From an uncultured Gemmatimonadaceae bacterium (GTDB lineage: Bacteria; Gemmatimonadota; Gemmatimonadetes; Gemmatimonadales; Gemmatimonadaceae): DNA of 64,000 bases. The translations under genes were made by a program, and so were the position numbers. Numbering within the stretch: position 1 is the stretch's first letter; each line of letters starts with the position of its first letter. The notes below the pieces were generated by a model. The model ran no database searches, was not told the DNA's origin, and saw only the letters and a program-made list of their open reading frames with translations. The stretch is from contig CAWHHI010000016.1 of the NCBI GenBank assembly GCA_963829055.1, forward strand, positions 896,001 through 960,000. The letters run 5' to 3'. Below, one piece after another: positions 1,001 through 63,700 of this stretch.

Positions 1001-1282
1001 CGTTGGATCCTCCCTGGAAGTGCCGCTCGAGTGGCAAGCAGACACCATCCGTAAAGCACGTGCGGTGCCAACTGCGACTGCGAATGGCACGTCGCACGGC
1101 TGGTCTCCAACTGGCCACAGACGAACGACTTACACGGCGCAGCCCGCATCCAACTCAACCGTTAGGCGTCCCCCGATCCACACGATCGCCGTCTCGCTCG
1201 CGAGACAACGCCGGCTCGGCTACAATTCACAGCCATCGCGTCGTCGCGACCGACACTTCTTTCTTCCCTCCGTCCCACCGCC

Positions 1283-2541
1283 ATGGGCACTGCCAACGCC
1301 ACGTCGTACAAGGATCTCGCCGCCTCCCACGTCCGGTGAGTCGATCACGATGCGCGACGGTCGGCTCGACGTGCCGAACGAGCCCATCGTCCCATTCATC
1401 GAGGGCGACGGCACGGGTCCGGACATCTGGCGTGCCTCACAGCACGTCTTCGACTCGGCGGTGAAGAAGGCGTATGGCGCCAAGCGGCGAATCGCGTGGT
1501 TCGAAGTGCTGGCAGGCGAGAAGTCGAAGGCGAAGCTCGACACGTATCTCCCCGACGACACGCTGATGGCCATCGACCGTCACCTCGTGGCGATCAAGGG
1601 CCCGTTAGGCACGCCGGTGGGCGGCGGCTTCCGATCGCTCAACGTGACGGTCAGGCAGAAGCTCGATCTCTACGCGTGCGTTCGTCCCGTCCGCTACTTC
1701 GCCGGCGTCCCCTCGCCGGTGAAGCGGCCGGAGGACGTGGACATGGTGATCTTCCGCGAGAACACGGAGGACATCTACGCCGGCATCGAGTACAAGGCGG
1801 AGTCGGACGCAGGCGCGGAAGCTCATTCGCTTCCTGCAGGACGAGATGGGCGTGAAGGCCATACGCTTCCCTGAGACGAGCGGTATCGGCATCAAGCCCA
1901 TCAGCGCCGAAGGCACGAAGCGGCTCGTGCGATCCGCCATCGAGCACGCGATCCTGCGCAAGTCGAAGAGCGTGACGCTCGTGCACAAGGGCAACATCAT
2001 GAAGTACACGGAGGGCGGCTTCCGCGACTGGGGCTACGAGCTCGCGAAGCAGGAGTACGGCGCCGTGGACATCGACGGTGGACCGTGGCAGCGGCTGCCT
2101 AACGGGATGGTGATCAAGGATGCGATCGCCGACGCGTTCCTGCAGCAGATCCTGACGCGCCCGACGGAGTACGACGTCATCGCCACACCGAACCTGAACG
2201 GCGACTACATCTCGGACGCGCTGGCGGCGCAGGTGGGCGGCATCGGGATCGCGCCGGGCGCGAACATCAACTACCAGACTGGCCACGCGGTATTCGAAGC
2301 CACGCACGGGACGGCGCCGAAGTACGCGAACCAGGACAAGGTGAATCCCGGGTCCGTCATCCTCTCCGGTGAGATGATGTTCCGCTACATGGGCTGGAAC
2401 GAAGCCGCGGATCTCATCATCACGAGTCTCGAGAAGGCGATCGCCCAGAAACGCGTGACGTACGACTTCGAGCGCCTCATGGAGGGCGCGACGCTGACGT
2501 CCACGAGCGGCTTCGCGAACGCGATGGTCGAGAACATGTAG
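1283..2541 (+). CDS. icd: NADP-dependent isocitrate dehydrogenase (frameshifted near 1290 and 1815)
   Basis: [18 protein letters not shown], [49 protein letters not shown] motifs across ORFs 342-1874 and 1846-2541. Confidence 0.97.
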
Positions 2542-2547
2542 GGACTG

Positions 2548-2668
2548 TTGTCATCCCGAGCGCAGCTAGCGACGAGGCCTTCCGGTGATGTCATCGTAGC
2601 CAGTCCGGCCACGAGTCCTTCAGCGACGCCTCATGTGCGCCTCGCGGGCCCCGCGCTCGGGATGACAA
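2548..2668. repeat. REP-like inverted-repeat element between convergent genes
   Basis: 16-bp terminal inverted repeat TTGTCATCCCGAGCGC ... GCGCTCGGGATGACAA. Confidence 0.8.
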
Positions 2669-2674
2669 AGGGGC

Positions 2675-4231
2675 CTAGTTCACCGTCGCACCGTACGAGT
2701 ACGTCTCCGCCGACCCCTCCGTTCCCACGATCGCCGGCACGAGCGTGATCTTCGACCACTTCGTGCCGAAGTTGGCGATCGAGATCGAACCAGCACTCGA
2801 CCCGTCGAGCGAAATCGGATAGACGGTCGGCATCCCGCCGGTCCTCGGCGTCGCGATGACGAGTGCACGCCACGCGAAGCCATCGGCACCGTCGAACGTG
2901 AGGGTGAGCGTTCCGGTACCGGCCGGCAAGAACTCTACGAAGTTCGCTCCGCCGTACGCCCACGGCGCGCCATTGCCGACCTTCTTCGTGCCCGGGGCGA
3001 TCGACACGCTGACCGGGTAAGCGTTGTGCGTCGCCGCGATGACGTTCGTCGGTAGCGGAATGACCGTCGGTGCGTCCGACGTGAAGTCGTTGATGCCAAG
3101 CGTGTACTCGGCGGCGGCAAAGTTCTTCAGCGGCTCCCACGTGCCTCCGAAGGCGGTCGAGTCGAATCGCGTCACGCATCGTGTTGGTCTTCGCCGCCAG
3201 CCAGATCTGACGCTGGATGTCCGCGCCGTACGTCTCGCTGAGCCAGTTCTGGAAGTACGCCGCGCCGTACAGGAAGCGGCTGAACAGCGGAAGGTCGGGC
3301 GTCGCGAGGAACCTGTTGATGTACCAGTGCCAGTCGTTCACGCCGTCGTACACGGCGTCTTCCGCCCACGTCGCGTGCGACTCCATCAGCCAGCCTGACT
3401 GCAGCACGTTCATGTTGAACTGGATGGCGTGCATGAACTCGTGCGCCTGCGTGACCTTGAGCGCGCCGCTGCGGACGGTCTCCGCGCCCGTGACATCCTC
3501 GTCGTTAGGCGGGAACCCGTCGTAGAAGTCGTTCTCGACCACGATGTAGGCGCTCGCCGTGCCGAGCGGGACGGGGCTCGTCGCCTGTACGGTTACGTTT
3601 TCCGGGTAGGTCGCACCGTAGTACGTCGTCAGGTCCTTGTAGTACACGTGGAACTTCTGCGCCGGCGTCCCGACCGGTGGTGGGTATCGGAGCTCGACGA
3701 TCTCCCGCTGCCACACCGCCTCGAGGCTCCTGGCAGCGACGTCAATGAAATCGGGGATCCGGTTCTTGTTCGCGTCGAGCGTCGGAACCGAGTGGTTCCC
3801 GATCGTCGTGTAATGCAGGACGAAGTGCGGCGTCTCGAACGTTTGAGACAGGTTGCCCAGCCCCTTGGCGCGCAGGTCGAGGATCTGCTGCTGGGTCGAC
3901 TTGGAGAGCGAGCTCCAGTCGCGGGCCATCTGCACGAGCGAGTACGTCGCGTCCTTTCCGATGACCGACGAGCGGTACTTGGCGGGCAGCTGATCGGATC
4001 GCTGAGGGCCGCCTCGCGGTAGACGTTGGCGTTCTGCTTGTCCAGCGCCCCGCCGGAATAGTCGTCCTCGACGAGTTCGAGTGACGTCTTGCCGTTGCCG
4101 CCCTGCATGGCGACTGGGGACACGCTCACGGTCCGCGGCGCAGCAGGCGTCGTCGGCTCGTTAGGCAGATCCGTACAGGACGCGGCAACGACCACCAGCA
4201 ATGCGACACCACCGACGAATCGAGAACGCAT
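2675..4231 (-). CDS. Lipoprotein with zincin-type putative metalloprotease domain (MXAN_6640-like), frameshifted
   Basis: MRSRFVGGVALLVVVAASC lipobox; FETPHFVLHY, AHEFMHAIQ (HExxH), WLMESHATWAED; C-terminal part in ORF 2675-3175. Confidence 0.75.
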
Positions 4232-4531: not shown

Positions 4532-5276
4532 GTGGCGCTTCGCGATGAGCTGGAACGCTCCGGGACGTGGCTGTTTCGTTGGCGGGGCTACCTGCCACTT
4601 CTCCTGTTCGTGCCCGTGTTGGCAGGGCTGTCGGAATCGTCGACAGCGCCGCTCGGCTCCGGGATGGACACGCTGTGGGAAGCGTTCTGCTGCGTGGTGG
4701 GCCTTCTCGGCCTCGCGATTCGTGTCGCGACCGTTGGTCGTGCACCTGGCGGCACGTCCGGCCGGCGCACGCTCGGCGGCCCAAAAGCATCGCAGCTGAG
4801 CACGACCGGGATGTATTCGGTCGTGCGACACCCGCTATACCTCGGGAACTACTTCCAGTGGCTCGGCGTCGCGATGCTCCCGCGGAACCCGTGGGTGGCC
4901 ATCACGGTGAGCCTCGTGTTCTGGATCTATTACGAACGGATCATGTTCGCGGAGGAGGAATATCTCCGACGCACGTTCGGCGCGGAGTTCGAACAGTGGG
5001 CATCGCGCACGCCCGCGTTCATTCCGGATTTCGCCCACTGGATTCCCGCTGCGCTGCCGTTCTGCTGGCGGACGGCCGTGCGCCGCGAAAACTCCGGGAT
5101 GTTCGCGTTCGTCGCCGCCATCACGTTCGTCGGCCTCGTGCAGGACGTCGTGATCGCGCGACGCTTCGCTACCCGACCCGTTCTGGTCCGCGACGTTCGC
5201 GACGGGTGCTCTGACGTACGTCACTCTGCTGCTCGTAGGCCGCCGGACGAGTCTCCTGCGGGTTCCAGGCCGGTGA
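4532..5276 (+). CDS. Isoprenylcysteine carboxyl methyltransferase family membrane protein (lipid A phosphate methyltransferase-like)
   Basis: LSTTGMYSVVRHPLYLGN, YERIMFAEEEYL, TPAFIP; last TM helix continues after a frameshift near 5180 to TGA 5274-5276. Confidence 0.85.
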
Positions 5277-5310
5277 CTCGTTAGGACGTTCGCGGTCGTG
5301 TGAGACGGCG

Positions 5311-5691
5311 TTAGGTGCGCACGGCGGCGATCGCCTGAATCTCGATCTGGTAGCCGTAGTGAAGGTCCTTCACCGGTACTACGGCCCGCGCGGGACGGTG
5401 GGCGCCCATGATACGTGCGTACGTGGTGTTGACGCCGCCCCACAGCTCAATGTCCGACACGTAGATGGTCATCTGCAGCACCTGATCGAGCCCGCTGCCC
5501 GCGGCGACGAGAATCGCCTCGACGTTGCGCAACGTTCGCTCCGTTTGCTGTTCGATCGAGCCCACCGTTCGGTCGCTGCTCTTCGGATCGATCGGAAGCT
5601 GTCCCGCGACGTAGACGACGCCGTTATGCACGATCGCCTGCGAGTAGTGGCCGGCTGCGGTGGGCGCGTCGCGCGTTTCGATCGCTTGCAT
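5311..5691 (-). CDS. ridA: RidA/YjgF/UK114 family enamine/imine deaminase
   Basis: APTAAGHYSQA, VAGQLPIDP, HRPARAVV, IEIQAIA. Confidence 0.93.
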   Translation of the reverse strand: MQAIETRDAPTAAGHYSQAIVHNGVVYVAGQLPIDPKSSDRTVGSIEQQTERTLRNVEAILVAAGSGLDQVLQMTIYVSDIELWGGVNTTYARIMGAHRPARAVVPVKDLHYGYQIEIQAIAAVRT

Positions 5692-5700
5692 TGTCGTATC

Positions 5701-7056
5701 CTATGAAGTGATGGACGTGTCTCGAGGCGCGCCCGCGATCGTGCCGCGGCACTCGCCGAACCCAATGCGCGCGAAGCCATCTCGCTCGCAGAACCCGCGG
5801 AAGACGACTTCGTCGCCGTCTTCGAGAAACCGGCGCTGCTCACCGGTCGGAAGCATGACGGGCTCCGTGCCTCGCCACGCCAGTTCCAGCAGACAACCGC
5901 GAGAGTCCTTCGTCGGCACCGGACACCGTCCCACTGGCGATGAGATCGCCCGGCGGTCAGGTTACATCCGTTGCTCGCGTGGTGCGTGACGAGCTGCGCG
6001 AGCGTCCAGTACATCTCCGTGAACCGGACGCGACTGAGGCGCACTGCGCTCACGCTCTCACGCCGCATTCGCTCCGAGCGAATCCAGACCTCGAGCTGAA
6101 TGTCGATGCCGCCCCCGGCGTCGTTCGACGTGTGACGCCAGATACGGCAGCGGCGCAGGATCACCAGCAGCTCGCGCGAAGGCCGGTGCGCGAAACGGCG
6201 CCAATGCGTCGATCGTCACGACCCACGGCGATACGGTGGTCGCGAAGTTCTTCGCCAGGAACGGTCCGAGCGGCTGATACTCCCAGCTCTGAAGGTCGCG
6301 CGCCGACCAGTCGTTCACGAGGCAGAGCCCGAACATGCGCTCTTCCGCCTCCTCGAGCGGGATGGTGTGGCCGAGTTGGTTTCCGCTTCCGATGAACGCG
6401 CCGACTTCGAGCTCGTAGTCGAACCGCCGACTCGGTCCGAACGTCGGCTCGGCATCCGCGTCGCCTTTCGATTGCCCGCGCGGCCGCACTATCCGCGAAC
6501 CGCTCGCACGATGGACGACGCACGGCCGTGGTAGCCGATCGGGACGTACTTGTAGTTAGGCAGCAGCGGATTGTCGGGTCGGAACATGCTGCCGACGTTC
6601 GTGGCGTGGTGAATCGACGCGTAGAAGTCGGTGTAGTCGCCGATGGCCGCCGGGACGAGCATCTCGACATTGGCCGCGTTCACGAGGAAGTCGGCCGCCG
6701 CATCGCGCGCGCGCGCCGCCCTGATCCGTGTCCGCCCGCAGCAGATCGACGAGCCCGCCACGGAGGGCGCGTCGCGCGGCAGCACCAGCCGCCATCAACG
6801 GAGTTGAGCGTTCCGCCGGCACACAACCGGGCAGCGTCGCGTGCTGCACCCGTCACGAGACCGAGCCGTACCAACGCGTCGACGACGAGCACCTGGTCGC
6901 CGATGGCGACGCCGACTCGCGGCGTCTCGCTACCGCCACCGCGGAACACGCCTAACGGGAGATTCTGAATCGGGAAGTCTGTCGCCGCGATCGTTCGCTG
7001 AGTCCACCCAGGAGCGCAGGTCGGCGCGATGTGTTTCGTCGACCACGTCAGAGCAT
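5701..7056 (-). CDS. fahA: Fumarylacetoacetase (multiply frameshifted)
   Basis: [79 protein letters not shown]. Confidence 0.93.
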
Positions 7057-8000
7057 TCCGAGTGCGGTGAGGTCGTCGAGCGGCTCACGGAACGAGCAGG
7101 ACCCGAAGGACACCATTGCGAGCTGTCGCGCCTCGGCAAGCTGCTCGTTCGTGAACCGATGCTGGCGCCACGACACGCCGTCGTCGTGACAGTCGCACGG
7201 CGTCTGGCGATCGCTCCTCGATGAGTTCGCGCGCCGTCGCGGGATCGCCACCGCGTTGAAGAAGAACCGACGCCAGAAACAGGTTCAGGAAACCGTACAT
7301 CGTTCCGCGAGCGCTGTCGGTCGCGTACGTGAGCGCGTAATCACCACGCAGTGGGTGGTGAAGTCCGGCAGTCGCCTTGAATGCCACTCGCTTCGCTCGA
7401 CGCACGCGACGAGAAATCGCACGAGATCGTCGCTCGACGGAAACGCATCCGGAGTCGTTCCGCCTGTTCGTACCTTGGCGATGCACGGCTGCGCCGCAAC
7501 GGCGCGGACGAGCGGTCGAGGGATCGCCGGCGATGGGAATCTCCACGAAGCATTGCATCGAGCCGCCGGACAGCCTGCGCCGCTGCCGCAACGGCGTCAG
7601 GCGTGGACGCCCGGACTTCGATCGAATCAACGCGACCCAGCCACGCCTCGCCGGATTCCTCCTGCGCCGCATTGAACGCGTGCACGAGCGCCATGTCCTG
7701 GCGCGACACTGGCGCCCAGGAGCGCGCTCAGGCGCCAGGGACGCACCGCGATGCCTAACGAGCGCGCGCTGCGGCGGCGTCCGCGGCCGCCGCGTCGGCC
7801 AACTCGGCGAGCCGCGCCGCCGGAACCACGAAGCGACCGAGGGCCCAGCTGTCCGCCGAGTCGAGGTACGCGGCGTACTCCGCGACGGCGCCGGGCATGT
7901 CGAGTTGCGCCGGCGGAAACAGCCCCGCGTAGTCGATGGCGTCCGCGAGAAGCACCCGCACCGCGGGCCCGTCTCGCACGACGCGGTGCGCCGTCGTCAC
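7048..8000 (-). CDS. Conserved hypothetical protein upstream of fahA (frameshifted)
   Basis: [11 protein letters not shown]-terminus, [29 protein letters not shown]. Confidence 0.75.
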
Positions 8001-11092: not shown

Positions 11093-11129
11093 GCCTAACG
11101 CGCAGTCCACTCGCGGGCGCAGTCCGGAC

Positions 11130-11691
11130 CTAACGCGACTGCATCGCAGGGCAGCTCGCGTCCTCGACATTCGGCGCTCCATAACGCGATCTGATCAGAC
11201 GCGGTGGACCCGCATCACCGAGGATCACCACGAAGACCTGATCGTACTCGCTGTCGCAGAGATCGCGCGGCTGCGGCGCGCCCAGCGCGCCGACGATCGC
11301 CGGAATCGTGTTGCTGTGACCGACGACGAGCACTGTGCCGCCAGCGTGCTTCATCACCTGGTCGGCTACCGCCTTCGCGTGCTGCGCCGCTGGACCAGCC
11401 GCCACGACGTCCGGCGTGATGTGCAATGCGATGGCGGTCGGTTCCGCGGTCTTCCGCGTGCGCTCGAACTGCGTCGTGATGATTGCGCTCACGCCTGCAT
11501 CCCGCGCGACGCCGACGAGCGCTTTCGCGCGCTCCGACCCGCCTTCCGTAAGCGGCGGGTCCTGGGCGGGCTGCGAGCCCTTCTCGGCATGACGCACGAG
11601 AATCACGACCGTCGGAGGCGCTACCAGCGACGTCGGCCGCGGAAGCAGGTCCGGCGAGGAAGGCGGCGAGCGTGAGAGCGAGTACGCGCAT
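11130..11691 (-). CDS. Secreted histidine phosphatase (SixA/PGM family), frameshift near 11630
   Basis: ILVRHAEK, LVVGHSNT; signal peptide MRVLALTLAAFL in the adjacent frame. Confidence 0.85.
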
Positions 11692-12275: not shown

Positions 12276-15027
12276 TCACTGCGACGCCGACGTCCTCGGC
12301 TCCAGAATCTCACGAAAGGCCGGGAAGTCGCGTAGCGACTCGAAGTCGTGCTCGGCGTGGAGGGAGTGGGTACGAGCGTATCCCTCTCTCAACGCCTGAC
12401 GAATGAGTGCGACGGCGCCTTCCCGGTCTCCTTTCACCGCCGCGATTCGTGCGGCCCACAGCCGCGGGCTACCGAAGGTGTACGGCCGTGGATCCGCAAC
12501 GAGACGCGCAGCAATGCTGTCCGCCTCCGCCGTCCTGCCCAAGTCTCGCCGCCAGTACGCCGAGCGCCCCCGCGTCCTCGGTCGTGCTCGAGTCCTCGGC
12601 GAACAGCGCCGCGTAGAGCACCCGCGCGTCGGCCCAGCGCTCGAGTTCAGCGAGCACGCGCGCCATGCTGCGCCGGTGGGCTCGCCTCGCCTGCTCGTCC
12701 CGCGGCCGCGCTGCGTACCACCGCTCCGCGCGCTGAAACGCGTCGCGCGCGAGCGCGGCGTGGCCATGTGCGCGAAGCTCGCGGCCGCACTCCCACAGGA
12801 AGTCGCCGGGCGTGTAGTCCTCCCACGTCTCGGTTGTCGATGGGAACGACGCCCCGTCCATGGCGAGGTCGAACGCCTCCTTGCCGCGTCCGAGGGCCGC
12901 GGTCGCCTTCACTTCCTCGAGGCGGGTCCAGCCCACGTTAGGCTCGCTGGCCCGGAGCTGCTTCGCCCATTCGAGATCGTGTTGGTAGTCGCCGAGCTGA
13001 TGGTATGAACGGGCAATGAGGTTGAAGACGCGGGGAGCCCACGACTTTCCCCACCCTTCCTTCGTGTTGATGCGCTGGAGCACTTCGATCGCTTCACGCG
13101 GCCGGTTCGTGATCTCCGACGTTAGGCCGGCCGCGTAGAGGGCGTGGGCAGCACCCGGCGCGAGCTCCACCATTCGCCGTGCGCCACGGTAGGACATCTC
13201 CCAGTTGCCACGTACGAATCCGGCGTAGAAATAGTCGAGGTTCGCCTCGTCGTAGGACGCCAGGTTGGCGCGATTGCGATCGAGGATACGAAAGAGCGAA
13301 TCGGCGGTCGCGTAGCGACGAAGATTCGCGGTCGCCATCGCGTCCCAGAGCAACGCCTGCCAGTAGGTGGAGTCGAGCTGCGCGGCGCGGGTGAAATGCC
13401 GCACCGAGTTCTCGTAGTCGGGGCCGAACGTCTCCATTCCCAGCAGGAACTCGCCGTACGCCTCGTACGTCGGCGGCTGGCTCGTGCGCGCCGTCCAGTT
13501 GTTGAGACGCGGATCGAGCAGCACGGCGAGCGCGCCGGTGATACGCTGCCGGAGCGGTTCGAGCGCTGCGGTCGGGCGCGTGATCGGCGCGTTGACGACG
13601 TCCACCGTGTGCCGTACTTCTCCGGACGGCGCACCGGTAATGCGCATGAGAAACCGCAGTTGATCGCCTTCGATGAAGTAGCTGCCCGACACCACCGTCC
13701 CGGCACCGGTGCGTTCCGCGAGGGTGCGCAGGTAGTCGTCGCCGCGCGACGGACCGGCGTCGCGCGCAGTCTCGAGCATCGTCCTCGCGTCGACGACCTG
13801 CACCAGCCCCGTTCTCAGCAGTCCTTGCGTCACCCAATCGGCCACCATTGAACCGACGGCTTCGAGTGCGGGGTTGCCGGTGCGATTCTCCAGCGGCGCG
13901 ACCACGACACGGGACGGAACGACCACCGCGGCGCTCGCCACGCTGCGTCCGCGCGCGAACCAGACGCCGCCGGCGACGGACAGAAAGCCCACGGCGGCAA
14001 GCGTCGCGCTGATCGCGAATCGGCGGCGACGACGCGGCGCGGCAGCCGCCGCGGTTCGCAGCGGTGGCCCGACAGCAGGCGCCGGGGACTCGCCTAACGA
14101 CAGCGGTGCCACGACGGGCGCCAACGCCGACGACGGCGGAACCGCGATGCCCGAAGTACCGGGCGAGTACTCCGAGGCTGGTGCGCGCGGAGCGGCGGTT
14201 GCCCCAACGACCTGCGCTGCTTGCGCTACCTGCGGTGCTTGCGCTACGACATCCGCTGCCGCGACTGCAGGTGCCGTCGGGGCAGGCGCAGGTGGCGGCC
14301 CGACCGGCGCGTGCGCACCGGCACGCAGCTCATCCGCGAACCGCACGACTTGCGCGTCCGCCGGAAGGTCGAGCTGCTCCTGAACGAGCGCCTGATGAAT
14401 CGCGGCGTGGCGAATGGCGCCATTCCGATCGCCCGCGGCGGCGAGCGCCTTCATGAGCCGGATCGCGACACGCGCGTTGATCGGGTCTTTCGCCGCCAGG
14501 CGACGCCACCAGATGACGGCCGTCGCGTGATCGCCACGCGTCTCCGCGGCGAGCGCACACTTCTCGAATGCGGTATCGCCGTCATGCTCGAGCGAGCGCC
14601 GCTCTTCCTCTACCCAGCGCTCGAACTCGCCCGCGCCGGGGAGATGGAAGCCGTCGAGAAACGGTCCACCGTAGAGAGTCGCGGCACGCTCATACGCGCG
14701 CGACTCGAGCGCCTCCTGGAACTCGGCGACATCGCTCGTGAGGACGTCTGCACCAAGCCGGAGGTCGCGCACTCCCACAATCGCATCGTCGGACCCGAGG
14801 TCTCGCCGCAGCATGTACACCGCTTGCGACAGCAGGCGGCGAGCACGCTCCTCGTCGGAATCCGGCCAGAGGTAGCCAATGACCTTTTCACGCGTGATCC
14901 CCCGGTCACCCGACCTCGCCAGCAGCGCAAGGATCGCCAGGCGACGAGGTTGAGACGCGGCGCCGGCCAGTGGCTGCCCGTCGTCGCGCAGCACTGACAG
15001 CTGACCGAGACACTTGATGCGAAGCAA
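12276..15027 (-). CDS. BTAD/SARP-type transcriptional regulator with TM, TolB-N-like and TPR regions (frameshift near 12480)
   Basis: LRIKCLGQLS, LAILALLA, LWPDSDEERAR, YGGPFLDGF, RLMKALAAAGDR; VVVAPLENRTG; helical repeats. Confidence 0.85.
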
Positions 15028-15039
15028 TCGGGATCCTCG

Positions 15040-25350: not shown

Positions 25351-25364
25351 CGTCGCTCTCCTGC

Positions 25365-47177: not shown

Positions 47178-47368
47178 ACGCGCGCTGAGTTCTCCCCCGC
47201 CAGGCCCATCGAGCACGCGCAGGCGAAGCGACTCCGGAACCGCGCGTGCGGCACGTCCGCTGCACGGCTCACTCGAATACCTCGCGATCCGTCCGCCTAA
47301 CGATCTGGATTCACAGCTCGAGGGCTCCGGCGGCGGGCGGCCCGCCCCGCCCCGTCAGTAGGGCCGCG

Positions 47369-52051: not shown

Positions 52052-52070
52052 CCGAGTATCCCTCGAAGAC

Positions 52071-52113
52071 GAAAACGAACGAGGCCGCCCTATAGGCGGC
52101 CTCGTTCGTTTTC
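52071..52113. terminator. Bidirectional intrinsic terminator
   Basis: GAAAACGAACGAGGCCGCC-CTATA-GGCGGCCTCGTTCGTTTTC. Confidence 0.9.
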
Positions 52114-52604: not shown

Positions 52605-53954
<1,350 letters not shown>

Positions 53955-54725: not shown

Positions 54726-55669
54726 ATTGAAAAGTGGTCGTGACCGGATGGCAGGTCAACGAACCGGCCCTTCGCTGCGATTCTCACCATCCCTTCTCCC
54801 GTACCTGGCGCCGAGGCCGTACCAACCCGTGTCAGCGGAACACCGAACTCGCGTGCGAATGCGTGCTCGTCGATCGCGACGGGCGTCGCGATGAGAAGCT
54901 CGTACTCCTCGCCGCTGTTCGTCGCATCCAATGGCGACGTGCCACGAACGATGGGCATGGCCTCGAGCTCGAGGCAAACATCGACGCGACTCGCCGCCGC
55001 CAAGTGGCGCACGTCGGCCGCGAGTCCGTCCGAGATGTCGATCGCCGCCGTTGCCCCGTGCGCGGCAAGCCACAGCGCCTCGCGAATGCGCGCGGATGGA
55101 CGCGCGAAGCGTTCGCGATGCTCGGGCAATGGGACGCGTCCATGCTCCCACGCGTCGAGCGCGCAGCGGGGTCCACCGAGCGTACCGGTCACGTAAAGCG
55201 TGTCGCCGGCTCGCGCAGCATCTCGACGGAGTGGGTGCGTGGCGAAGCCGAGCACGGTCACCGTGAGCGAAAGCTCGGTGCCGCTCGTGAGGTTGCCGCC
55301 GGTGATCGGCGCGCCAAACGATCGCGATGCGTCGCCGATGCCCTCGGCAATTCCGCCCAGCGCGTCGCGCCAGCGTTCAGGAACGCTCAGCGCGACGAGC
55401 ATCGCGATGGGCGTGGCGGCCATGGCCGCGAGGTCGCTCAGAGCGGCAGTGGCCGCGCGGTAACCTATTTCGGGCGGCTCGAGCCAGGCGCGACGAAAGT
55501 GGACGTTTTCCACTGTCGCGTCCGTGGACGCGACGAGCCGAGTACCGGCGGGGACATCGAGCACGGCAGCGTCGTCGCCGATGCCGCGGGCCGCTGTCCC
55601 CCAGCGACGAACGAGATCGCGAATGACGTCGAACTCGCGGCCGGGGCCGAGCGAAATGCTATCGCTCAC
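54722..55669 (-). CDS. thiL: Thiamine-monophosphate kinase
   Basis: GIGDDAA, SDLAAM, IDISDGL, GEEYEL. Confidence 0.95.
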   Translation of the reverse strand: MSDSISLGPGREFDVIRDLVRRWGTAARGIGDDAAVLDVPAGTRLVASTDATVENVHFRRAWLEPPEIGYRAATAALSDLAAMAATPIAMLVALSVPERWRDALGGIAEGIGDASRSFGAPITGGNLTSGTELSLTVTVLGFATHPLRRDAARAGDTLYVTGTLGGPRCALDAWEHGRVPLPEHRERFARPSARIREALWLAAHGATAAIDISDGLAADVRHLAAASRVDVCLELEAMPIVRGTSPLDATNSGEEYELLIATPVAIDEHAFAREFGVPLTRVGTASAPGTGEGMVRIAAKGRFVDLPSGHDHFSI

Positions 55670-57212
55670 TGACGTCGTCTCGGCGTGACCCGATCGGCGG
55701 AAGCACCGCGAGTACGGGCGGGCGCGGCGCCGGAAGTGGTTCGCTCCACACTCGAGCGAGCGCGCCAATGACATCCTCGATGGTCGTGCCGCGCGCGCCG
55801 ACGCCGTCGGCGATCTCCGCGGCGCGCCCATGAACCCACGCCGCGCACGCGGCCGCTTCGAGCGTGTCGTCTATCTGTGCAACGAGCGTCCCGGCGATTC
55901 CGGAAAGGACGTCGCCACTCCCGCCGGTCGCGAGCGCGGGCGTTCCCGTGGCCGAGACGAGGCTTCGTCCGTCGGGCGCGGTAAGCACGGTCGGCACACC
56001 CTTCAGCAAGACGACACAGCCCAACCTCTTCGCGAGGTCACGGCCGGCGTCGAATGGCGAACGGAGCACGTCGTCGACCGAGGTTCCGCTCAGGCGCGAG
56101 AATTCCACTACGTGCGGCGTGATGAGCGCCTTCCTGTCCACGAGGAGCGCGCCGAGTGCGGATGCGTCGCCCTCGTACGCCGTGAGCGCGTCGGCATCGA
56201 TGACCACGGGCCCACGCCATACGTGGAGTATCCGCTCGATGAGCGAGCGCGCCGCGTCGCCGCGACCCAGCCCAGGCCCGATGACCACCGCGTGCGCCCA
56301 GTCGCAAATGGTATCGCGAATCTCCTCGTCGGACTCGGGCCATGGTCGCGTCAGCGCCGCGGGGGCGACGGTTTGCGAGGGGGCGATGCTCGCCGGATCG
56401 ACGACGACGCGCACCATGCCTACGCCGCTTCGAAGCGCAGCTTGTGCCGCGAGAATGCACGCGCCGGCCATCCCGCGAGCGCCACCGACGATCGCGACCC
56501 GCCGACGCTTCCCCTTGTGCGCGTTGGCCGCGATGGCTGGCACGCGCGCCGCCACCCAGCGGTGATCGATCAGCGTTGGCGCACCATCGTCCGGCATAGC
56601 GTGGAGACCGAGACCGATGTCCACGACGACCAGCCGGCCGCACCGCTCACGCCTAACGAGCGCGCCACGCTTCATCGTGCCGAACGTGATCGTGAGATCC
56701 GCCGTCACCGAGACGTCGCCCTCGCCGGTGGACGCGTCGAGCCCACTCGGCACATCGAGCGCGACGACACGCGCGCCGTCGGCGCGCAGCTGAGAGACAC
56801 GCCGGATCGCGTCGGCCACCGCGCCGCGCGGAGCCCCGCTCGAACCGGTGCCGAGGATGCCGTCGACGACGATTTCTTCGCCGCCCGTCGGCGCGCGGTC
56901 ATCGATCAGCGCGCGCGCGAGCTCCCGCTCGGCACGCGCGTCGTCGGTCTTCGTGTCGCCGACTTCAACCATGCGGACACGAATCCCAGCCGCGGCCAAC
57001 GCGCCCGCAACGACCCAGGCATCGCCGCCGTTGTTTCCGGGCCCGGCGAAAATCGCCACGCCGCGCGTCAGGCGGTCGCCGAACTCTCGCGCGATCTCCG
57101 CCGCGGCGGCAGCGCCGGCGCGCTGCATGAGCGCGCGCGATGGAATGCCGCCGTCGATCGCAGCCCGATCGCGAGCAGACGCCTGTGCGGCGGTGACGAC
57201 ATGCACGGTCAT
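55659..57212 (-). CDS. nnr: Bifunctional NAD(P)H-hydrate epimerase/dehydratase
   Basis: GPGNNGGD, DVPSG, IGPGLG, DADAL, LATGGSGDVL. Confidence 0.95.
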   Translation of the reverse strand: MTVHVVTAAQASARDRAAIDGGIPSRALMQRAGAAAAAEIAREFGDRLTRGVAIFAGPGNNGGDAWVVAGALAAAGIRVRMVEVGDTKTDDARAERELARALIDDRAPTGGEEIVVDGILGTGSSGAPRGAVADAIRRVSQLRADGARVVALDVPSGLDASTGEGDVSVTADLTITFGTMKRGALVRRERCGRLVVVDIGLGLHAMPDDGAPTLIDHRWVAARVPAIAANAHKGKRRRVAIVGGARGMAGACILAAQAALRSGVGMVRVVVDPASIAPSQTVAPAALTRPWPESDEEIRDTICDWAHAVVIGPGLGRGDAARSLIERILHVWRGPVVIDADALTAYEGDASALGALLVDRKALITPHVVEFSRLSGTSVDDVLRSPFDAGRDLAKRLGCVVLLKGVPTVLTAPDGRSLVSATGTPALATGGSGDVLSGIAGTLVAQIDDTLEAAACAAWVHGRAAEIADGVGARGTTIEDVIGALARVWSEPLPAPRPPVLAVLPPIGSRRDDVSER

Positions 57213-57947: not shown

Positions 57948-58273
57948 TGCTTATCCTCTGACCAAAGGGTTCGTGTCACTCGGCGCCGCGACACCACGGT
58001 CCGCCCTTGGGAGCCGAGGGCAGGTCCCATGCCCTGCCCGGCTACCCATGGCTAAGATGTGTGCCCGTTCGGCGGGGCACAACTCCCGGAGTCCCGCTGC
58101 GATGACGAGTGACGGCGAGCGAGGGGCACGTTACGGGTGTGATGTCCGTGACGGTCGCGGTCCATCGTCGATTAGGCGAGCCTAACCGCCGGACGTGCCG
58201 TCCCCACACGCGTGTGCTGCCTAACGCGCTGCACGGGTCGATTGCCGAGGGCTCACAGCGCCTGACGCCGCGG

Positions 58274-58289
58274 CTCCGCTCGGAATGAC
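58274..58289. repeat. Half copy of REP family
   Basis: CTCCGCTCGGAATGAC identical to 111-126. Confidence 0.6.
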
Positions 58290-58295
58290 CTCGCG

Positions 58296-59585
58296 TCACG
58301 ACGCCGCGACGACAGGTGCCGGGTAGAGCGGGAATGCCGACGTCAGCTCCCGCACATCCGCGCGCACGCGCTCCGAGACGCTCGCGTCGTCCGGCGACTG
58401 CAGCGCCGTATCGATCAACTCCGCGATGCGCTCCATGTCCGCCTCCTTCATGCCGCGCGTCGTCACGGCTGCCGTGCCGATGCGCACGCCGCTCGTCACG
58501 AACGGCGACTGCGTCTCCTTCGGGACCGTGTTCTTGTTCACCGTGATGCCCGCGCGATCGAGCGCCTGCTCGGCCACCTTGCCCGTCAGTCCCTTGCTGC
58601 GAAGGTCGACCAGCATCAGGTGGTTGTCGGTTCCACCCGACACGATGTGAAATCCACGCGCCATGAGTGCCGCGGCCAGCGCTCGCGCATTCGCGATGAC
58701 CTGGGCCGCGTAGTCCTTGAACGACGGGTGGAGCGCTTCCTTCATCGCGACCGCTTTCGCCGCGATCACGTGCTCCAACGGTCCGCCCTGCAGGCCCGGG
58801 AACACCGCCTTGTCGATCGCCTTCGCGTGCTGCGCCTTGCACAGAATGAGTCCACCACGCGGTCCGCGCAGCGTCTTGTGCGTCGTCGTGGTGACGACGT
58901 CCGCGTGCGGAACAGGGGATGGATACACGCCGGCGGCCACGAGTCCGGCGAAGTGCGCCATGTCCACCATGAAGATCGCGCCGACCTCGCGGGCGACGTC
59001 GGCGAAGTACGCGAAGTCGATGACGCGCGAGTATGCACTGTATCCGGCGATGATCATCTTCGGCCGATGCTCGAGCGCCAGCGCGCGCACCGACTCGTAG
59101 TCGATCAGACCCTCCTCGTTCACCTTGTACGACACCGGGCGGTACAGGATGCCGGAGAAGTTCACCGGCGACCCATGCGTTAGGTGCCCGCCATTCGACA
59201 GGTCCATGCCGAGGAACGTCTCGCCCGGCTTGAGGAACGCGAGGAACGCGGCGGCGTTCGCCTGCGCACCCGAGTGTGGCTGCACGTTCGCGTGCTCGGC
59301 GCCGAACAGTTGCTTCGCGCGGTCGATCGCGATCTGCTCCACCTGGTCAACGAACTCGCAGCCACCGTAGTAGCGCTTGCCGGGCAGGCCTTCCGCATAC
59401 TTGTTCGTCAGCGGCGAGCCCATCGCTTCGAGCACGGCGGGCGAGACGAAGTTCTCGCTCGCGATGAGCTCGAGGCCATCGTTCTGGCGTTCGATCTCGC
59501 GGTCGATCAGACGAGAGATGTCCGGGTCGGCGTCACGAAGCGCCGAACCCGGCGGACAACGATCCCATTCCGACCAGGTGATCAT
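58296..59585 (-). CDS. glyA: Serine hydroxymethyltransferase
   Basis: [33 protein letters not shown]. Confidence 0.99.
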
Positions 59586-59644: not shown

Positions 59645-60760
59645 TCATGCTTCGCGCGGGAACGGCGGCCACGTGCGCACGAGCGATCCGACGGCCTTCA
59701 GGCGCCGCTCGGCGAGGCGATCGGCAGCGACGTACGTCGGAATGGACTGCTCGCGCGCCAATTCGAAGACACCGAGCAACGTGTCGTAGATCTCGTCGGC
59801 CTTTCGAAGCGAGCGCTCGCGCGTCCACCCGGCGAGCTCACTGTATACGTTGATCACGCCACCGGCGTTCGCGACGTAGTCCGGCGCGTAGAGGATACCC
59901 TTGGCCTCGAGCTCTTCGCCGTGCCGCTCTTCCAGGAGCTGGTTGTTCGCGCCGCCCGACACGATCTCGACGCGGAGCTTCGGCATCGTCTTGTCGTTGA
60001 TGATGCCGCCGAGCGCGCACGGCGCGAAGATGTCGGCCTTCGTGCCGAAGATCTCGTCGTGCTCCACGGCCTGCGCTCCGAACTCATCGACCACGCGCTT
60101 CACCCGCGACGCGTCGATGTCCGTGACGATCAGGCGTGCACGCGCGGCGTGGAGCTCCTTGCACAGATAGTAGCCGACGTGGCCGAGCCCCTGCACCGCG
60201 ATCGTCTTACCTTCGAGCGAGTCCGAGCCCCAGCGATGCTTCGCCGACGCCTGAATCGAGCGGAACACGCCGTGCGCTGTCACGGGCGACGGGTCGCCGG
60301 ACTTGTTGGCGAGACCGGTGACGTACTTGGTCTCCATGTGCACGAAGTCCATGTCCGCCGTGCTCGTGCCGACATCCTCGGCGGTGATGTAGCGGCCGCC
60401 TAACGAATCGACGAACCGGCCGTGGGCGCGGAACGTCATCTCGCGCTTCGTGCTCCGGTTGTCGCCGATGATGACGGACTTGCCGCCGCCCAGGTTCAGG
60501 CCGGCCACCGCGTTCTTGTACGTCATCCCGCGCGAGAGGCGAAGGGCGTCGATGATGGCCTCCTCATCGCTCGCATAGTGCCAGAACCGCGCGCCGCCGA
60601 GCGCCGGGCCGAGCGTCGTATCGTGAATGGCGATGACGCCCCGATAGCCGCTCGATTTGTCGTGACACATCACGACCTGCTCGTGGCCCATCTCGGCCAT
60701 GGTGTCGAACAGCGCGAGGGAGCCCGTGGGCGTGGCGTCTATGGTTGCGAGAGAAGACAT
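59645..60760 (-). CDS. Leu/Phe/Val dehydrogenase
   Basis: LGPALGG, GMTYK, GGGKSV, AEDVG, QGLGHVG, NAGGVIN. Confidence 0.95.
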
Positions 60761-60812: not shown

Positions 60813-61977
60813 TCAGGACTGCGCGTAGAGCTCTCGCGCGATCACGATGCGCTGGATCTCGGACGTGCCTTCGTACAACTCGGTGACCTTCGCGTCGCGG
60901 AACAAACGTTCGACGGGATACTCCTTCACGTAGCCGTAGCCGCCGAAGATCTGCACTGCTTCGGTGGTGACGTACATCGCCGTCTCGCTCGCGAGCAGCT
61001 TGCTCATCGCGCTGAACTGCGTGATGGGCTCGTCGCGATCCTTCGCGGCGGCGGCCGAATACAGCAGCGCGCGTGACGCGGTAACGCGCGTCGCCATGTC
61101 GGCGAGCTTGAACTGGATCGCCTGGAACTCCTTGATCGGCCGATTGAACTGGCGCCGTTCAGCCGCGTAACGCGTCGCGTGCTCGAGCGCCGATCGCGCG
61201 ATGCCGACCGCCTGCGCGGCAATGCCAAGCCGGCCGTTGTCGAGCGACTGCATGGCGTAGATGAAGCCCGAATGCTGATCACCGAGCAGGTTCGCCGCGG
61301 GAACGCGCAGGTTCTCGAAGTGCAGCTGCACCGTCGGCGACGCGCGAAGCCCGAGCTTCGTCCTCCTTCTTGCCGACGTGAAAGCCCGGCAGGTCAGGGG
61401 TGATGATGAACGTGCCGATACCGCGCGCGCCGCGACGATCGTTAGGCGTGTCGGTGCGAGCCATCGCCAGAATCACGTCGGCGTGGCTGCCGCTCGTGAC
61501 CCATGCCTTCGTGCCGTTCAGCACCCAGCAGTCGCCGTCGCGCACTGCCTGCGTGCGCAGTGCCGCGGCGTCGGAGCCGGCCTCGGGCTCGGAGAGCGCG
61601 AAGGCGCCTAACCATTCGCCGCGCGCCATCGGCTTGAGGAACTGCTCCTTCTGCTCGTCGTTGCCGTAGCGCAGGATCATCTGCGTCGGCAGCGAGTTGT
61701 GCACGCTCATGAGCACCGCGACCGACGCATCGACGGCCGCGATCTCCTCGAGCGCGACGAGGTACGTCCGCGTATCGAGGCCGAGTCCGTCGTACTCCTC
61801 CGGAATGAGCATGCCGAGGAATCCGAGCGCGCCCAGCTTGCCCGCGATCGCCTCGTCGTACGCTTCAGCGCGATCCCACGCGTCGGAGTGCGGCGCGATC
61901 TCGGCCTTCGCGAAGTCGCGCGCCGTACGCTGGATCTCGCGCTGTTCTTCGGTCAGAGGAATGAGAGCCCAGGACAT
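60813..61977 (-). CDS. Acyl-CoA dehydrogenase (frameshift near 61360)
   Basis: ALSEPEAGSDA, GRLGIAAQ, QIFGGYGY, LYEGTSEIQ. Confidence 0.95.
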
Positions 61978-61980
61978 ACG

Positions 61981-62835
61981 TCAGGCCGTGCCGTACTTGT
62001 AGAAACCGCGGCCGGTCTTCCGGCCGAGCCATCCGGCCGCGACGTACTTCTTGAGCAGTGGGCACGGGCGGTACTTCGGGTCACCGAGGCCCTCGTGCAT
62101 CACCTCGAGAATCGCGACGCAGGTATCGAGTCCAATGAGGTCCGCGAGCGCGAGCGGGCCCATCGGGTGATTCATGCCGAGCTTCATGACCTGGTCGATC
62201 GCCTCGGGCGTCCCGACGTCCTCCATGAGCGCGAAGCACGCCTCGTTGATCATCGGCAGCAGGATGCGGTTGGCGACGAAGCCGGGGAAGTCGTTCACCT
62301 CCACGGGCGTCTTGCCGAGGCGCGTCGCGAGGTCCATCACGCGACGTGTGGTTTCGTCGGACGTCGCCAGACCGCGGATGACTTCGACGAGCTGCATGAC
62401 CGGAACGGGATTCATGAAGTGCATGCCGATCACCTGCTCGGGGCGCTTGGTCTGCGCCCCGATGCGGGTGATGGAGATCGAGCTCGTGTTGCTCGCGAGG
62501 ATCGCGCCAGCGGGGGCGATCCGGTCCAGATCGGCGAACAGACGGAACTTGAGGTCCGTGTTTTCCGTCGCCGCTTCGACCACGACAGTGGCATTGCCGA
62601 CGCCGCCCAGGTCGGTGCTCGTCGCGATGCGGCCTAACGCCGCCTGCCGATCGTCGGCCGAGAGGGCATTCTTCTTCACCTGCCGGTCCATGTTCTTCTC
62701 GATCGTCTCGCGGCCGCGACGGAGCGCGTCCTCCGAAACGTCGATCATGGTGACCGGGATGCCCGATTGCGCGAACACGTGCGCGATGCCGTTCCCCATC
62801 TGCCCCGCCCCGATGACCGCGACGCGGTCCGTCAT
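61981..62835 (-). CDS. hbd: 3-hydroxybutyryl-CoA dehydrogenase
   Basis: [33 protein letters not shown]. Confidence 0.95.
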
Positions 62836-62836
62836 G

Positions 62837-63700
62837 CTATGGCTCCTCGCGGCGCCTGCGCCGCACGTAGAGGTACAACGTTCCCGACACCAGACCTAGC
62901 GCCGCGGGGAGCCCACCCTCGGGACCCCAGACACCGCCGGTCGCCCAATCCGGACCGGCGTCCACGACGCGATAGTCCGGCGTGGTGAACGGAATGCCGC
63001 TCACAGCACTGTGCAACACGCCCGCCAACACCCAATTCCACGCCAGGTGCGCGGCGAACGCAGCCCACAGGCTCTGCGTCGCGACGAGCACCGCGCCCAG
63101 GAACACACCCGCCAGCACGACCACGGAGATCGACGAGAGCGTCGCGCCCGCATTCTGCAGATGAACGAGCCCGAACACCACGCTCGTCATGCCTAACGCC
63201 GCCGGCGTTCCCCACCACTCCTGCAACACGGTGAACGCGTAGCCGCGAAACAGCATCTCCTCCCAGAGCGCCGCCGGGGCCAGGAACAGCGCCATCGCCA
63301 CTCCGGCGACGATCCAGCTGCCCGCGGGTTCGGGCACAACGCGAAGCCATCCGGCCGCCAGTAGCGGAAGCGATGGAACTCCAATCGCGGCCGCTCCGAG
63401 CACTGTCGCGAGCGCGATTGGACGAAGTCGCGCCGAGCCCGCGCCAAGCTTCACCGCTTCCCACCCCCGTGGCTCGACCCACCGAAACGTCAGCAGGTGG
63501 CCCATCACGACAGACGCGAGGAGCGCCCACGGGAACAGCACGACCCGCACACCAGCGAGCGCCAGGACCCAGCTCACGAGCGGCACCACCGCGCCGTTGA
63601 TCACGATCAACGACAGTATGATCGAGGCGGCGAAGATCGCGAGTCGCCACGGAGGCCGAAGCGTGCCCTTGGAGTCCCAAAAAAAATCGCGCGCCGTCAA
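62837..63700 (-). CDS. CPBP (Abi/CAAX) family intramembrane protease
   Basis: [23 protein letters not shown]. Confidence 0.9.

Follow-up and report, generated by a model that had tools for sequence, protein, structure and literature searches.

The stretch of DNA analysed here, called the window below, comprises 64,000 nucleotides of an uncultured Gemmatimonadaceae bacterium (G000:C16:896001-960000). It contains genes for enolase, serine hydroxymethyltransferase and several dehydrogenases, an RNA-repair gene pair, a BTAD regulator and a pilin-like open reading frame (ORF). Scattered through it are copies of a short word, GCCTAACG, which is non-palindromic (its reverse complement is CGTTAGGC). 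Our analysis indicates that this word is a real signal at the DNA level, which is unpolarised, evenly spaced, conserved, still gained and restricted to certain lineages. The parent assembly, G000, is a metagenome bin of 7,784,024 bases in 20 contigs with a completeness of 86% and a contamination of 4%.

Exact counting of the window gave 54 copies of the core heptamer CCTAACG (29 on the forward and 25 on the reverse strand), 45 of which extend to GCCTAACG. Both counts, and the positions of the copies (Table 1), agree with the initial annotation, which had counted by eye; its guess of about 68% G+C is also close to the measured 0.64-0.69 (4-kb steps). In 100 dinucleotide-preserving shuffles of the window the heptamer occurred on average 2.92 times and at most 9 times, and 0/100 shuffles reached 54; the octamer occurred 1.05 times on average and at most 4 times. 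The chance estimate of 7 heptamers and 2-3 octamers in that annotation was, if anything, generous.

Abundance, codon use and conservation of the word

The whole assembly contains 5,004 copies of GCCTAACG in 7.78 Mb (0.64 per kb). The excess extends beyond the one contig, with a density of 0.48-0.80 per kb on each of the 20 contigs, and the absence of strand bias noted in the window holds genome-wide (2,457 forward, 2,547 reverse). The reversed word, used as a control, occurs 373 times. The octamer ranks 14th among all 8-mers of the genome, notwithstanding its TAA content; Markov models trained with the word masked predict 56 (order 2) or 14 (order 3) copies. Public sequencing runs were also searched: in the 20 among the matches listed at most 0.13 of the sampled words were present, and the contigs from four runs cover the stretch with DNA of relatives (40 among 1,072 differences listed).

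Genes were called with a simple codon-model script, which resulted in 6,478 genes covering 75% of the genome; 3,262 of the 5,004 copies lie wholly inside them. Frame and codon statistics refer to the 3,564 best-called genes, which contain 2,590 copies. Shuffling synonymous codons within each gene (n=10) left only 83-122 copies (mean 105.8), about 24 times fewer than observed. In this procedure each gene retains its protein sequence and its own set of codons, including the rare codons supplied by the word itself. Shuffling the order of codons (n=10) left 39-64. The excess thus survives a codon-aware null, which had been named beforehand as a test that could overturn it.

The word is read in all open frames. 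Within the confident genes we found xCG-TTA-GGC 1,052 times, xxG-CCT-AAC-G 714 times, xGC-CTA-ACG 473 times and xxC-GTT-AGG-C 351 times. The word forces rare codons; 1,052 of the 2,151 TTA codons lie within it. The frames that contain a stop are used at gene ends, where GCC-TAA-CG accounts for 197 of 790 TAA stops and CGT-TAG-GC for 177 of 1,658 TAG stops. A metagene profile peaks at the stop codon with 149 sense and 122 antisense copies per 25-bp bin, compared with about 20-35 elsewhere, and the density stays raised for about 75 bp past the stop codon, alike in both orientations. Because all frames on both strands are used and because copies concentrate in and at stop codons, we conclude that the force on the word acts on DNA and not on protein or RNA, and that copies are placed where they cost least.

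The orientation of the word is independent of transcription (1,187 sense, 1,403 antisense) and its strand is independent of the sign of the local GC skew (1,420/1,392/1,127/1,065). No replichore or transcription polarity was found in this 20-contig assembly, in which origin and terminus are not placed. The initial annotation had set the word apart from the strand-polarised Chi sites and FtsK-orienting polar sequences (KOPS); this distinction is upheld, and a polar signal of either type is excluded as far as 20 contigs permit.

The spacing of the words in G000 is non-Poisson and more regular than random. Gaps of less than 100 bp were observed 71 times, compared with about 317 expected. The ratio of observed to expected gaps is 0.16 at 0-25 bp, 0.16-0.56 under 200 bp and 1.0 near 300-400 bp; between 400 and 1,600 bp it reaches 1.2-1.3, and past 3.2 kb it drops under 1.

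A logo of the 6,391 CCTAACG heptamers in G000 shows that G precedes the core in 78% of the cases. The flanks carry no information save a three-base periodicity (at most 0.17 bit per position), and AT-rich flanking segments were not found in this logo. The word is a bare 8-mer and not a piece of a longer repeat; since conserved flanks are missing, it is not a mobile element. A dispersed repeat of the repetitive extragenic palindromic (REP) or miniature inverted-repeat transposable element (MITE) type was considered for GCCTAACG and rejected on the same ground and because of the many copies inside genes.

Few one-letter variants are enriched over an order-2 model. At position 1 these are A (827 copies, 31-fold), C (428, 17-fold) and T (132, 5-fold), and at position 8 A (435, 27-fold), T (79, 6-fold) and C (112, 4-fold). 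The variant with A at position 3, GCATAACG, has 583 copies (12-fold) and the one with G at position 5 has 1,763 (about 2-fold). The neighbours that differ by a C-to-T change, GTCTAACG, GCTTAACG and GCCTAATG, have 24, 24 and 13 copies, which is the expectation; they are not depleted. From the small number of enriched variants it follows that a putative reader specifies about RC(C/A)TAACR and that imperfect copies do not linger.

The history of individual sites was analysed by aligning the window to five further species of the genus, G001-G005, which gave identities of 77-81%; G006 entered a first trial only. In G001, 15/24 sites retain the word in the orthologous position, and 24% of all 8-mers are identical; the corresponding values are 22/32 and 22% in G002, 22/32 and 21% in G005, 6/20 and 15% in G003, and 11/29 and 16% in G004. 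Word sites are kept 2-3 times more often than average 8-mers. Twenty-nine sites can be aligned in at least three genomes; G000 shares 21 of them, and the other 8 are G000-specific. At these 8 sites the remaining species agree among themselves. One example is the Glu/Leu/Phe/Val dehydrogenase gene, where the others have GCCGAGCG or a near match and a CTC leucine codon of G000 has changed to TTA. The elevated retention, together with the eight specific sites, indicates that the word is maintained and still gained; the roughly 20% divergence of the alignments hides intermediate steps. The density of the word is 0.63 per kb in alignable and 1.13 per kb in unalignable DNA of the window. The word is therefore not confined to conserved DNA, and this contrast does not separate mechanisms. 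A search of the window for short tracts of high identity as traces of recombination gave one segment of about 1 kb only and was uninformative.

Table 1. Copies of the word in the window. Kept x/y: same word at the orthologous place in x of y aligned genomes of the genus. Uncalled DNA: DNA outside the genes called by the codon-model script.
Position	Strand	Word	Context	Kept
1160-1167	-	GCCTAACG	uncalled DNA	no orthologous alignment
1603-1610	-	GCCTAACG	antisense in isocitrate/isopropylmalate-dehydrogenase-like ORF, xCG-TTA-GGC	3/4
2097-2104	+	GCCTAACG	sense (CCT-AAC), Iso_dh gene 1846-2541	3/4
3503-3510	-	GCCTAACG	sense, DUF6055 gene 2631-3935	
4159-4166	-	GCCTAACG	uncalled DNA	
5279-5285	-	TCCTAACG (heptamer only)	end of called gene 4532-5284	
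5309-5315	-	ACCTAACG (heptamer only)	end of called gene 5311-5691	
6950-6957	+	GCCTAACG	uncalled DNA	3/5
7753-7760	+	GCCTAACG	overlaps end of called gene 7755-8000(-)	4/5
11093-11100	+	GCCTAACG	uncalled DNA	
11129-11135	+	ACCTAACG (heptamer only)	end of called gene 11130-11606(-)	
12936-12943	-	GCCTAACG	sense (CCT-AAC), BTAD regulator gene 12469-15027	2/2
13120-13127	-	GCCTAACG	sense (CTA-ACG), BTAD regulator gene 12469-15027	0/2
14092-14099	+	GCCTAACG	antisense (TTA), BTAD regulator gene 12469-15027	
15038-15044	-	ACCTAACG (heptamer only)	end of called gene 15040-15429	0/3
17535-17541	+	TCCTAACG (heptamer only)	in called gene 17523-17783(-)	0/3
18668-18675	+	GCCTAACG	uncalled DNA	5/5
20028-20035	+	GCCTAACG	antisense (GTT-AGG), called gene 19945-20454(-)	1/3
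21351-21358	-	GCCTAACG	uncalled DNA	0/5, G000-specific
21901-21908	-	GCCTAACG	uncalled DNA	4/5, fifth next to small insertion
22564-22571	-	GCCTAACG	uncalled DNA	3/5
22708-22715	+	GCCTAACG	uncalled DNA	0/5, G000-specific
23827-23834	+	GCCTAACG	uncalled DNA	3/5
25363-25370	+	GCCTAACG	antisense (TTA), 668-aa gene 24847-26853(-)	5/5
26974-26981	+	GCCTAACG	uncalled DNA	0/4, G000-specific
27912-27919	-	GCCTAACG	sense, DUF58/VWA gene 27175-28200	2/4
30264-30271	-	GCCTAACG	uncalled DNA	1/2
30372-30378	-	ACCTAACG (heptamer only)	uncalled DNA	0/2
31154-31161	-	GCCTAACG	uncalled DNA	3/4
31552-31559	+	GCCTAACG	antisense, called gene 31523-32329(-)	0/4, G000-specific
32345-32352	+	GCCTAACG	uncalled DNA	4/4
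33135-33141	-	CCCTAACG (heptamer only)	in called gene 33016-33591	0/4
33650-33657	+	GCCTAACG	overlaps end of called gene 33652-33984(-)	4/4
36012-36019	+	GCCTAACG	antisense (TTA), called gene 35886-36335(-)	5/5
41193-41200	-	GCCTAACG	sense, Pnkp-ligase gene 40195-41658	2/4
42120-42127	+	GCCTAACG	antisense, called gene 41616-42719(-)	0/4, G000-specific
43019-43026	-	GCCTAACG	sense, Hen1 gene 42783-44216	3/4
44296-44303	+	GCCTAACG	uncalled DNA	2/2
44409-44416	-	GCCTAACG	uncalled DNA	
44876-44883	-	GCCTAACG	uncalled DNA	
47295-47302	+	GCCTAACG	uncalled DNA	
47367-47374	-	GCCTAACG	uncalled DNA	
48707-48714	+	GCCTAACG	antisense, called gene 48527-48736(-)	
49472-49479	+	GCCTAACG	uncalled DNA within 90-95%-identical segment	2/2
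50187-50193	-	CCCTAACG (heptamer only)	beta-lactamase-family gene 49762-50700	0/1
51587-51594	+	GCCTAACG	start of pilin-like ORF 51580-52095	3/3
52971-52978	+	GCCTAACG	antisense (TTA), enolase gene 52605-53885(-)	5/5
56651-56658	+	GCCTAACG	antisense, NAD(P)H-hydrate repair gene 55659-57212(-)	0/5, G000-specific
58219-58226	+	GCCTAACG	uncalled DNA	0/1
59178-59184	-	ACCTAACG (heptamer only)	sense (CTA-ACG), serine hydroxymethyltransferase gene	3/5
60398-60405	+	GCCTAACG	antisense (CTC to TTA leucine), Glu/Leu/Phe/Val dehydrogenase gene	0/5, G000-specific; others GCCGAGCG or near
61440-61447	-	GCCTAACG	sense, acyl-CoA dehydrogenase gene	0/5, G000-specific
62632-62639	+	GCCTAACG	antisense (TTA), 3-hydroxyacyl-CoA dehydrogenase gene	3/3
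63191-63198	+	GCCTAACG	antisense (TTA), called gene 62837-63700(-)	2/3

Three long stretches of the assembly are free of the word: C6:5,440-55,037 (50 kb), C11:1-46,789 (47 kb) and C6:591,808-623,330 (32 kb). Two of the three deviate in G+C (0.70 and 0.73). All carry housekeeping genes; in the first, FtsK, AroC, DAHP synthase and Rpe are encoded a second time, with 47-56% identity to the other copies in G000. The segment C19:1-11556 is likewise word-free, and its proteins are 66-76% identical to Verrucomicrobial genes. These stretches are probably foreign or chimeric DNA in the bin. DNA of other origin in the same assembly lacks the word, and the word can serve as a sharp marker for binning and contamination.

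Distribution in two phyla, in viruses and in integrons

The survey of relatives covered 41 Gemmatimonadales genomes, that is G000 and 40 kin (one of them, G013, unpublished). The word is abundant in all seven genomes of the genus (2,501-5,112 copies) and in G014 from another genus (6,360 copies in 5.1 Mb). Intermediate numbers, 173-605 copies, occur in G010, G018, G019, G020, G021, G036, G038 and G040. The remaining 25 of the 41 genomes are poor in the word, with 3-65 copies, which is under their own reversed-word controls. The excess is not peculiar to one assembly either, as the word is also found in the six further species of the genus and in many public assemblies. An unbiased ranking of k-mers in samples of 65-80 kb placed the same word on top in G014 and, sparsely, in G010; no different hyper-abundant word or dialect was found in such samples of G008, G010, G014, G018 and G021. 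The top word of the G021 sample is a (GGGAAGC)n microsatellite (e.g. G021:C2:100001-120000, 2842-2960 on the plus strand, with three runs on the minus strand).

We also scanned one genome per species for three copies on the same strand at set distances; of the 107 stretches found, 80 were retrieved and 53 of these loci were examined. Loci with the word on both strands came from Gemmatimonadota (8) and from assemblies of Chthoniobacterales/Verrucomicrobiae (17), and from nothing else; the other 28 loci are single-stranded. Five Verrucomicrobial genomes contain 2,320-5,186 copies in 2.9-4.3 Mb, balanced between the strands. Their word is one letter longer, a 9-mer GCCTAACGA with A at position 9. 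This A is present at 94% of 484 sites in G041 and at 85% of 168 sites in thirteen other Verrucomicrobial assemblies; in Gemmatimonads it is present at 30% of 119 sites in G014, 13% of 83 in public loci and 28% of 6,391 in G000. Among 41 genomes around G041 (G049 is unpublished), 25 have 976-4,336 copies of GCCTAACGA and 16 have at most 19, and in the rich ones the A-ended 9-mer exceeds the three other endings combined by about 4- to 19-fold. The dialect therefore differs by lineage, with the 8-mer in Gemmatimonadaceae and the 9-mer in Verrucomicrobia of the Chthoniobacterales type. To look for a gene shared across the phyla, about 370 kb of DNA from Verrucomicrobia was compared with G000 by blastx; the matches were only conserved enzymes and the probably chimeric end of C19. 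The sample of G041 also contains runs of the 7-bp unit GTTAGGC.

Integrons outside the two phyla were considered and rejected: nine loci that were opened are CRISPR-like (clustered regularly interspaced short palindromic repeats) arrays with a period of about 72 bp, tandem repeats or a repeat protein. The arrays of about 72-bp period (e.g. L133, L136, L179, L189 and L192) share the repeat ...GCTCAACGCCTAACGGCATCAA..., which includes the octamer, across cyanobacteria, Leptospira, Haliangium and Gemmataceae. By their layout they look like CRISPR arrays. A further scan looked for two copies in viral contigs. Among the matches listed, 81 loci were examined; five of these reach a density of 0.5 copies per kb or more and use both strands, one of them being the tailed-phage contig described below.

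G027 and G025 are word-poor, and what copies they have form single-strand clusters with a spacing of 400-700 bp. The copies belong to attC sites of integrons, each of which has GCCTAACG, an imperfect inverted repeat of about 95 nt and then GTTAGGC, one per cassette. The consensus of the attC R''/R' boxes is RYYYAAC/GTTRRRY, and we take GCCTAAC/GTTAGGC to be an exact instance of it. The arrays in G025, G027 and the word-poor Verrucomicrobial genome G071 are chromosomal, with attC sites of about 100-115 nt and cassettes of 400-700 bp. In G071 the R'' context is GCCTAACGA in 10/15 sites and GCCTAACGT in 4/15, a match with the local dialect that is biased because these arrays were found by searching for the 9-mer. 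The available text of one publication includes a primer bearing GTTAGGC (PMC12614218).

The dispersed copies themselves were considered as attC sites and rejected, since the partner box and the folded structure are absent. GTTAGGC occurs within 200 nt downstream of GCCTAAC in 126 of 5,630 cases in G000, below random placement; hence the dispersed copies are solitary and are not attC sites. No attC structure was found at the nine words beside the intI gene of G000 and no word-bearing cassette array there. The IntI profile TIGR02249 scores over the cut-off in 24 of the 41 Gemmatimonadales genomes and does not correlate with the word: the genomes that pass include word-poor G007, G008, G009, G011 and G016, whereas word-rich G002 and G004 do not pass and the match in G014 is in pieces.

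Candidate readers and possible functions

The 41 relatives were also searched for genes that might read the word. ComEC was found in 40/41 and a PilQ-like secretin in 40/41 genomes, none of the secretins over the curated cut-off. Both are present in G000, which also has DprA, a small HHH_3 ComEA-like ORF and five pilin-like genes, one of them in the window (51580-52095). ComEC and secretins are present in 5/5 word-rich Verrucomicrobia. Vsr occurs in four of the 41 relatives, all word-poor, and in 0/8 word-rich genomes (completeness 77-92%). The only genomes with true MmeI-type methylases are G016, G035 and G038, and these are not word-rich. None of the gene families IntI, Vsr, MmeI-type methylase and ComP_DUS tracks the word among the 41 relatives. 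The initial annotation knew of no description of the word, and we likewise found none in the literature; the occurrences of the octamer among the matches listed are primers or unrelated. We found no literature that pairs Gemmatimonads with a DNA uptake sequence, and for Verrucomicrobia only matches which, judged from the listing, are unrelated.

The size of the excess, the presence on both strands and in all frames, the placement at least cost, the even spacing, the maintenance with turnover, the restriction to lineages and the dialect lead us to rank a signal of the DNA uptake sequence (DUS) type first. We propose, with a confidence that stays somewhat below even, that GCCTAACG is an uptake-sequence-like self word. 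That its reader belongs to the DNA-uptake apparatus is a tentative assumption of the same standing. In such a system a sequence-specific protein would read GCCTAACG as double-stranded DNA, and point substitutions would drive the word into the chromosome wherever the encoded protein tolerates it. The competence machinery would prefer to bind or import word-bearing fragments, and word-bearing alleles would replace word-less alleles through homologous recombination. The word would then build up on both strands to about one per fragment-sized interval and would be kept once gained. The initial annotation had suggested a sequence-specific system in this lineage, based on DNA uptake, binding of a nucleoid protein, or methylation or repair. 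Its general part stands, as the signal acts at the DNA level, occurs in all frames, overrides codon use, is conserved in position and is switched on or off by lineage; the branch of methylation and repair is weakened by the data on Vsr, MmeI and the one-letter neighbours.

To our knowledge hyper-abundant self words occur in very few bacterial groups, namely Neisseriaceae, Pasteurellaceae and, as highly iterated palindrome 1 (HIP1), cyanobacteria. The DUS of Neisseriaceae are read by the minor pilin ComP and have known dialects. Like GCCTAACG they are non-palindromic, occur about once per kb on both strands, in and between genes, and are lineage-specific with dialects in organisms with competence genes. 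They differ in having 10-12 letters instead of 8. Also unlike the DUS, terminator-type inverted pairs are rare here (13 inverted pairs less than 60 bp apart among 4,984 gaps in G000), the core is shared by two phyla and a ComP_DUS match is missing. The uptake signal sequences (USS) of Pasteurellaceae, for which we know of no receptor, resemble the word of G000 in using all frames where the peptide tolerates it, in lacking strand polarity and in even spacing, which has been reported for Haemophilus; spacing is even in G000 but not in the sample of G041. Unlike the USS, whose AT-rich flanking segments are in helical phase, the word has no AT-rich flanks in G000, and most of its one-letter variants are not enriched; in Verrucomicrobia the word gains an A and has weakly informative flanks. 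HIP1 (GCGATCGC), of which we know no function, is also an octamer that occurs about once per kb, overrides codon use and is conserved in position. However, HIP1 is palindromic and GCCTAACG is not, and an association with Vsr or MmeI-type methylases was not found here.

Several observations weigh against an uptake sequence. ComEC and the secretin are also present in word-poor genomes, so competence genes do not discriminate rich from poor genomes and are only permissive. ComP_DUS (PF16732) matches 0/8 word-rich genomes, although 14 control genomes, with no Neisseria among them, are matchless too; the sole match over the cut-off is in word-poor G016. No gene of the type IV pilus locus separates rich from poor genomes in a comparison of G000 with G001, the word-rich G014 and four others (G008, G009, G016, G021), and natural transformation in the Gemmatimonadaceae and Verrucomicrobia groups is not documented in the literature found. 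The same core occurs in two unrelated phyla and equals the attC R'' box, which is unexpected for an arbitrary uptake tag; the local attC sites of word-poor relatives, in the one phylum as in the other, have an R'' box that matches the word in every letter. The 256-kb sample of G041 shows no short-range repulsion of words, and 35 of its 42 close pairs (<60 bp) are direct repeats clustered at 10-11 and 19-22 bp. The one-letter variants other than those listed above, out of 24 tested, are at expectation; mismatched USS are common in Haemophilus. Finally, the tailed-phage contig IMGVR_UViG_3300049057_000028, with genes for the major head protein, scaffold, portal and both terminases, carries 31 copies in 17 kb (22 on the plus and 9 on the minus strand); for a virus, this is not predicted from uptake bias by itself.

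A rather unlikely but serious alternative is that the word is the site of an abundant chromosomal DNA-binding protein. Such a protein could be nucleoid-associated or architectural, possibly related to tyrosine recombinases and reading the attC/attI R box, and selection for chromosome organisation, not uptake, would keep each site; we consider this part doubtful to the same extent. Even spacing and positional conservation fit this explanation as well, and so do the identity with the R'' box, which integron integrases read, and the word on the phage contig. The direct-repeat pairs of G041, spaced near one and two helical turns, look more like cooperative protein binding. On the other hand, the analysis found no candidate for such a protein, the word does not follow the presence of IntI, and close pairs are depleted in G000. 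We also know of no nucleoid protein whose site is enriched 25- to 300-fold while imposing rare codons on thousands of genes. The sequence analysis presented here does not separate uptake of DNA from binding by a protein.

It is also conceivable, though improbable, that the reader is tuned to the attC R'' box and that both soil lineages preferentially bind or take up cassette-bearing DNA. The filling of their own chromosomes with the word would then be a side effect, which we regard as equally improbable. If true, this would link natural transformation, or another form of DNA capture, to the pool of integron cassettes, and would explain both the common core in two phyla and the dialects that fit the local attC.

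Biased repair or modification, similar to HIP1 or to very-short-patch repair, appears quite improbable. A methyltransferase would mark the word and a mismatch nuclease would convert near-matches to it. A similar excess and positional conservation are known for HIP1, the phage contig could have acquired the word by replicating in such hosts, and the patchy distribution among genera fits a mobile modification gene. However, Vsr was not found in the word-rich genomes, nor were MmeI-type methylases, the type that the methylase survey covered. The C-to-T neighbours are at expectation and do not feed a pool of 5,000 copies. Repair of one position cannot build the word from sequences that are two or more letters away, as seen at the G000-specific sites, and short-range repulsion is unexpected of a local repair bias.

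We give as little credence to the idea that the word is a by-product or tool of integrons, with dispersed attC R boxes acting as landing sites, decoys or remnants for the integrase. In word-poor relatives of both phyla the word mainly forms the R'' end of genuine attC sites within arrays of cassettes, and in G071 this end mostly has the same 9-mer as the dispersed dialect, with the search bias mentioned above. According to the available text of a preprint, integrases are able to insert cassettes at genomic attG sites, but these require GWT only, which makes a full R box unnecessary (10.1101/2022.09.11.507474). The dispersed copies lie inside ordinary genes, without partner box or a folded structure of 60-140 nt, and they arise via substitution in intact genes and not by insertion. 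Moreover, the presence of IntI does not track the word, and the one IntI gene of G000 has no word-bearing array beside it.

It is hardly tenable that the word is a polar signal like Chi or KOPS, results from codons or peptides, belongs to a dispersed mobile repeat or is a product of the assembly: Chi, KOPS and the related AIMS (architecture imparting sequences) are also short over-represented words, octamers read by DNA-processing enzymes, and contig C16 has a weak local strand imbalance (99+/146- in the first 500 kb, 209+/185- beyond), but those signals are co-oriented with replication and far less in excess, polarity with GC skew is missing genome-wide, the excess survives two codon-aware nulls, the word uses all frames on both strands, its flanks carry no information, and seven species of the genus as well as short-read assemblies of another phylum carry it.

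Self words, where they are understood, show how cells distinguish DNA of their own kind from foreign DNA. Two abundant, poorly cultured soil phyla carry a signal of this type, and in G000 it dictates half of the TTA codons and a quarter of the TAA stops. If the word is a mark for uptake, sequence-selective transformation would be evidenced for the first time in these phyla, and gene flow in soil would become easier to follow. A tie to the attC box, if there is one, would relate the capture of cassettes to the evolution of sequence across the genome.

Other features of the window

The segment 48818-50781 is 90-95% identical to DNA on other contigs of G001 and G002, and its flanks are about 75% identical. 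It includes a gene of the beta-lactamase family as well as ORFs that match no Pfam entry, and it may have been exchanged recently or be mobile. The RNA-repair pair at 40195-44216 (-) consists of a gene with a Pnkp ligase domain (E 2.7e-180) and the adjoining Hen1 gene (E 7e-115).

Two genes in the window are split, the isocitrate/isopropylmalate dehydrogenase gene into ORFs 342-1874 and 1846-2541 and the acyl-CoA dehydrogenase gene into ORFs 61279-61977 and 60813-61331. The tail of the pilin-like ORF 51580-52095 becomes arginine-rich. The split or out-of-frame genes suggest indel errors of the assembly or genuine frameshifts.

A second dispersed element has the consensus ...GATTCCTCGACTCGC..CGCTCGGAATGACA; its 8-mer CGGAATGA occurs 1,065 times in G000. 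The flanks of this 8-mer are conserved, and the element therefore looks like an intergenic repeat of the REP or MITE type. In the window it is present at 114-126, 2550-2562, 2654-2666, 17708-17720 and 58277-58289.

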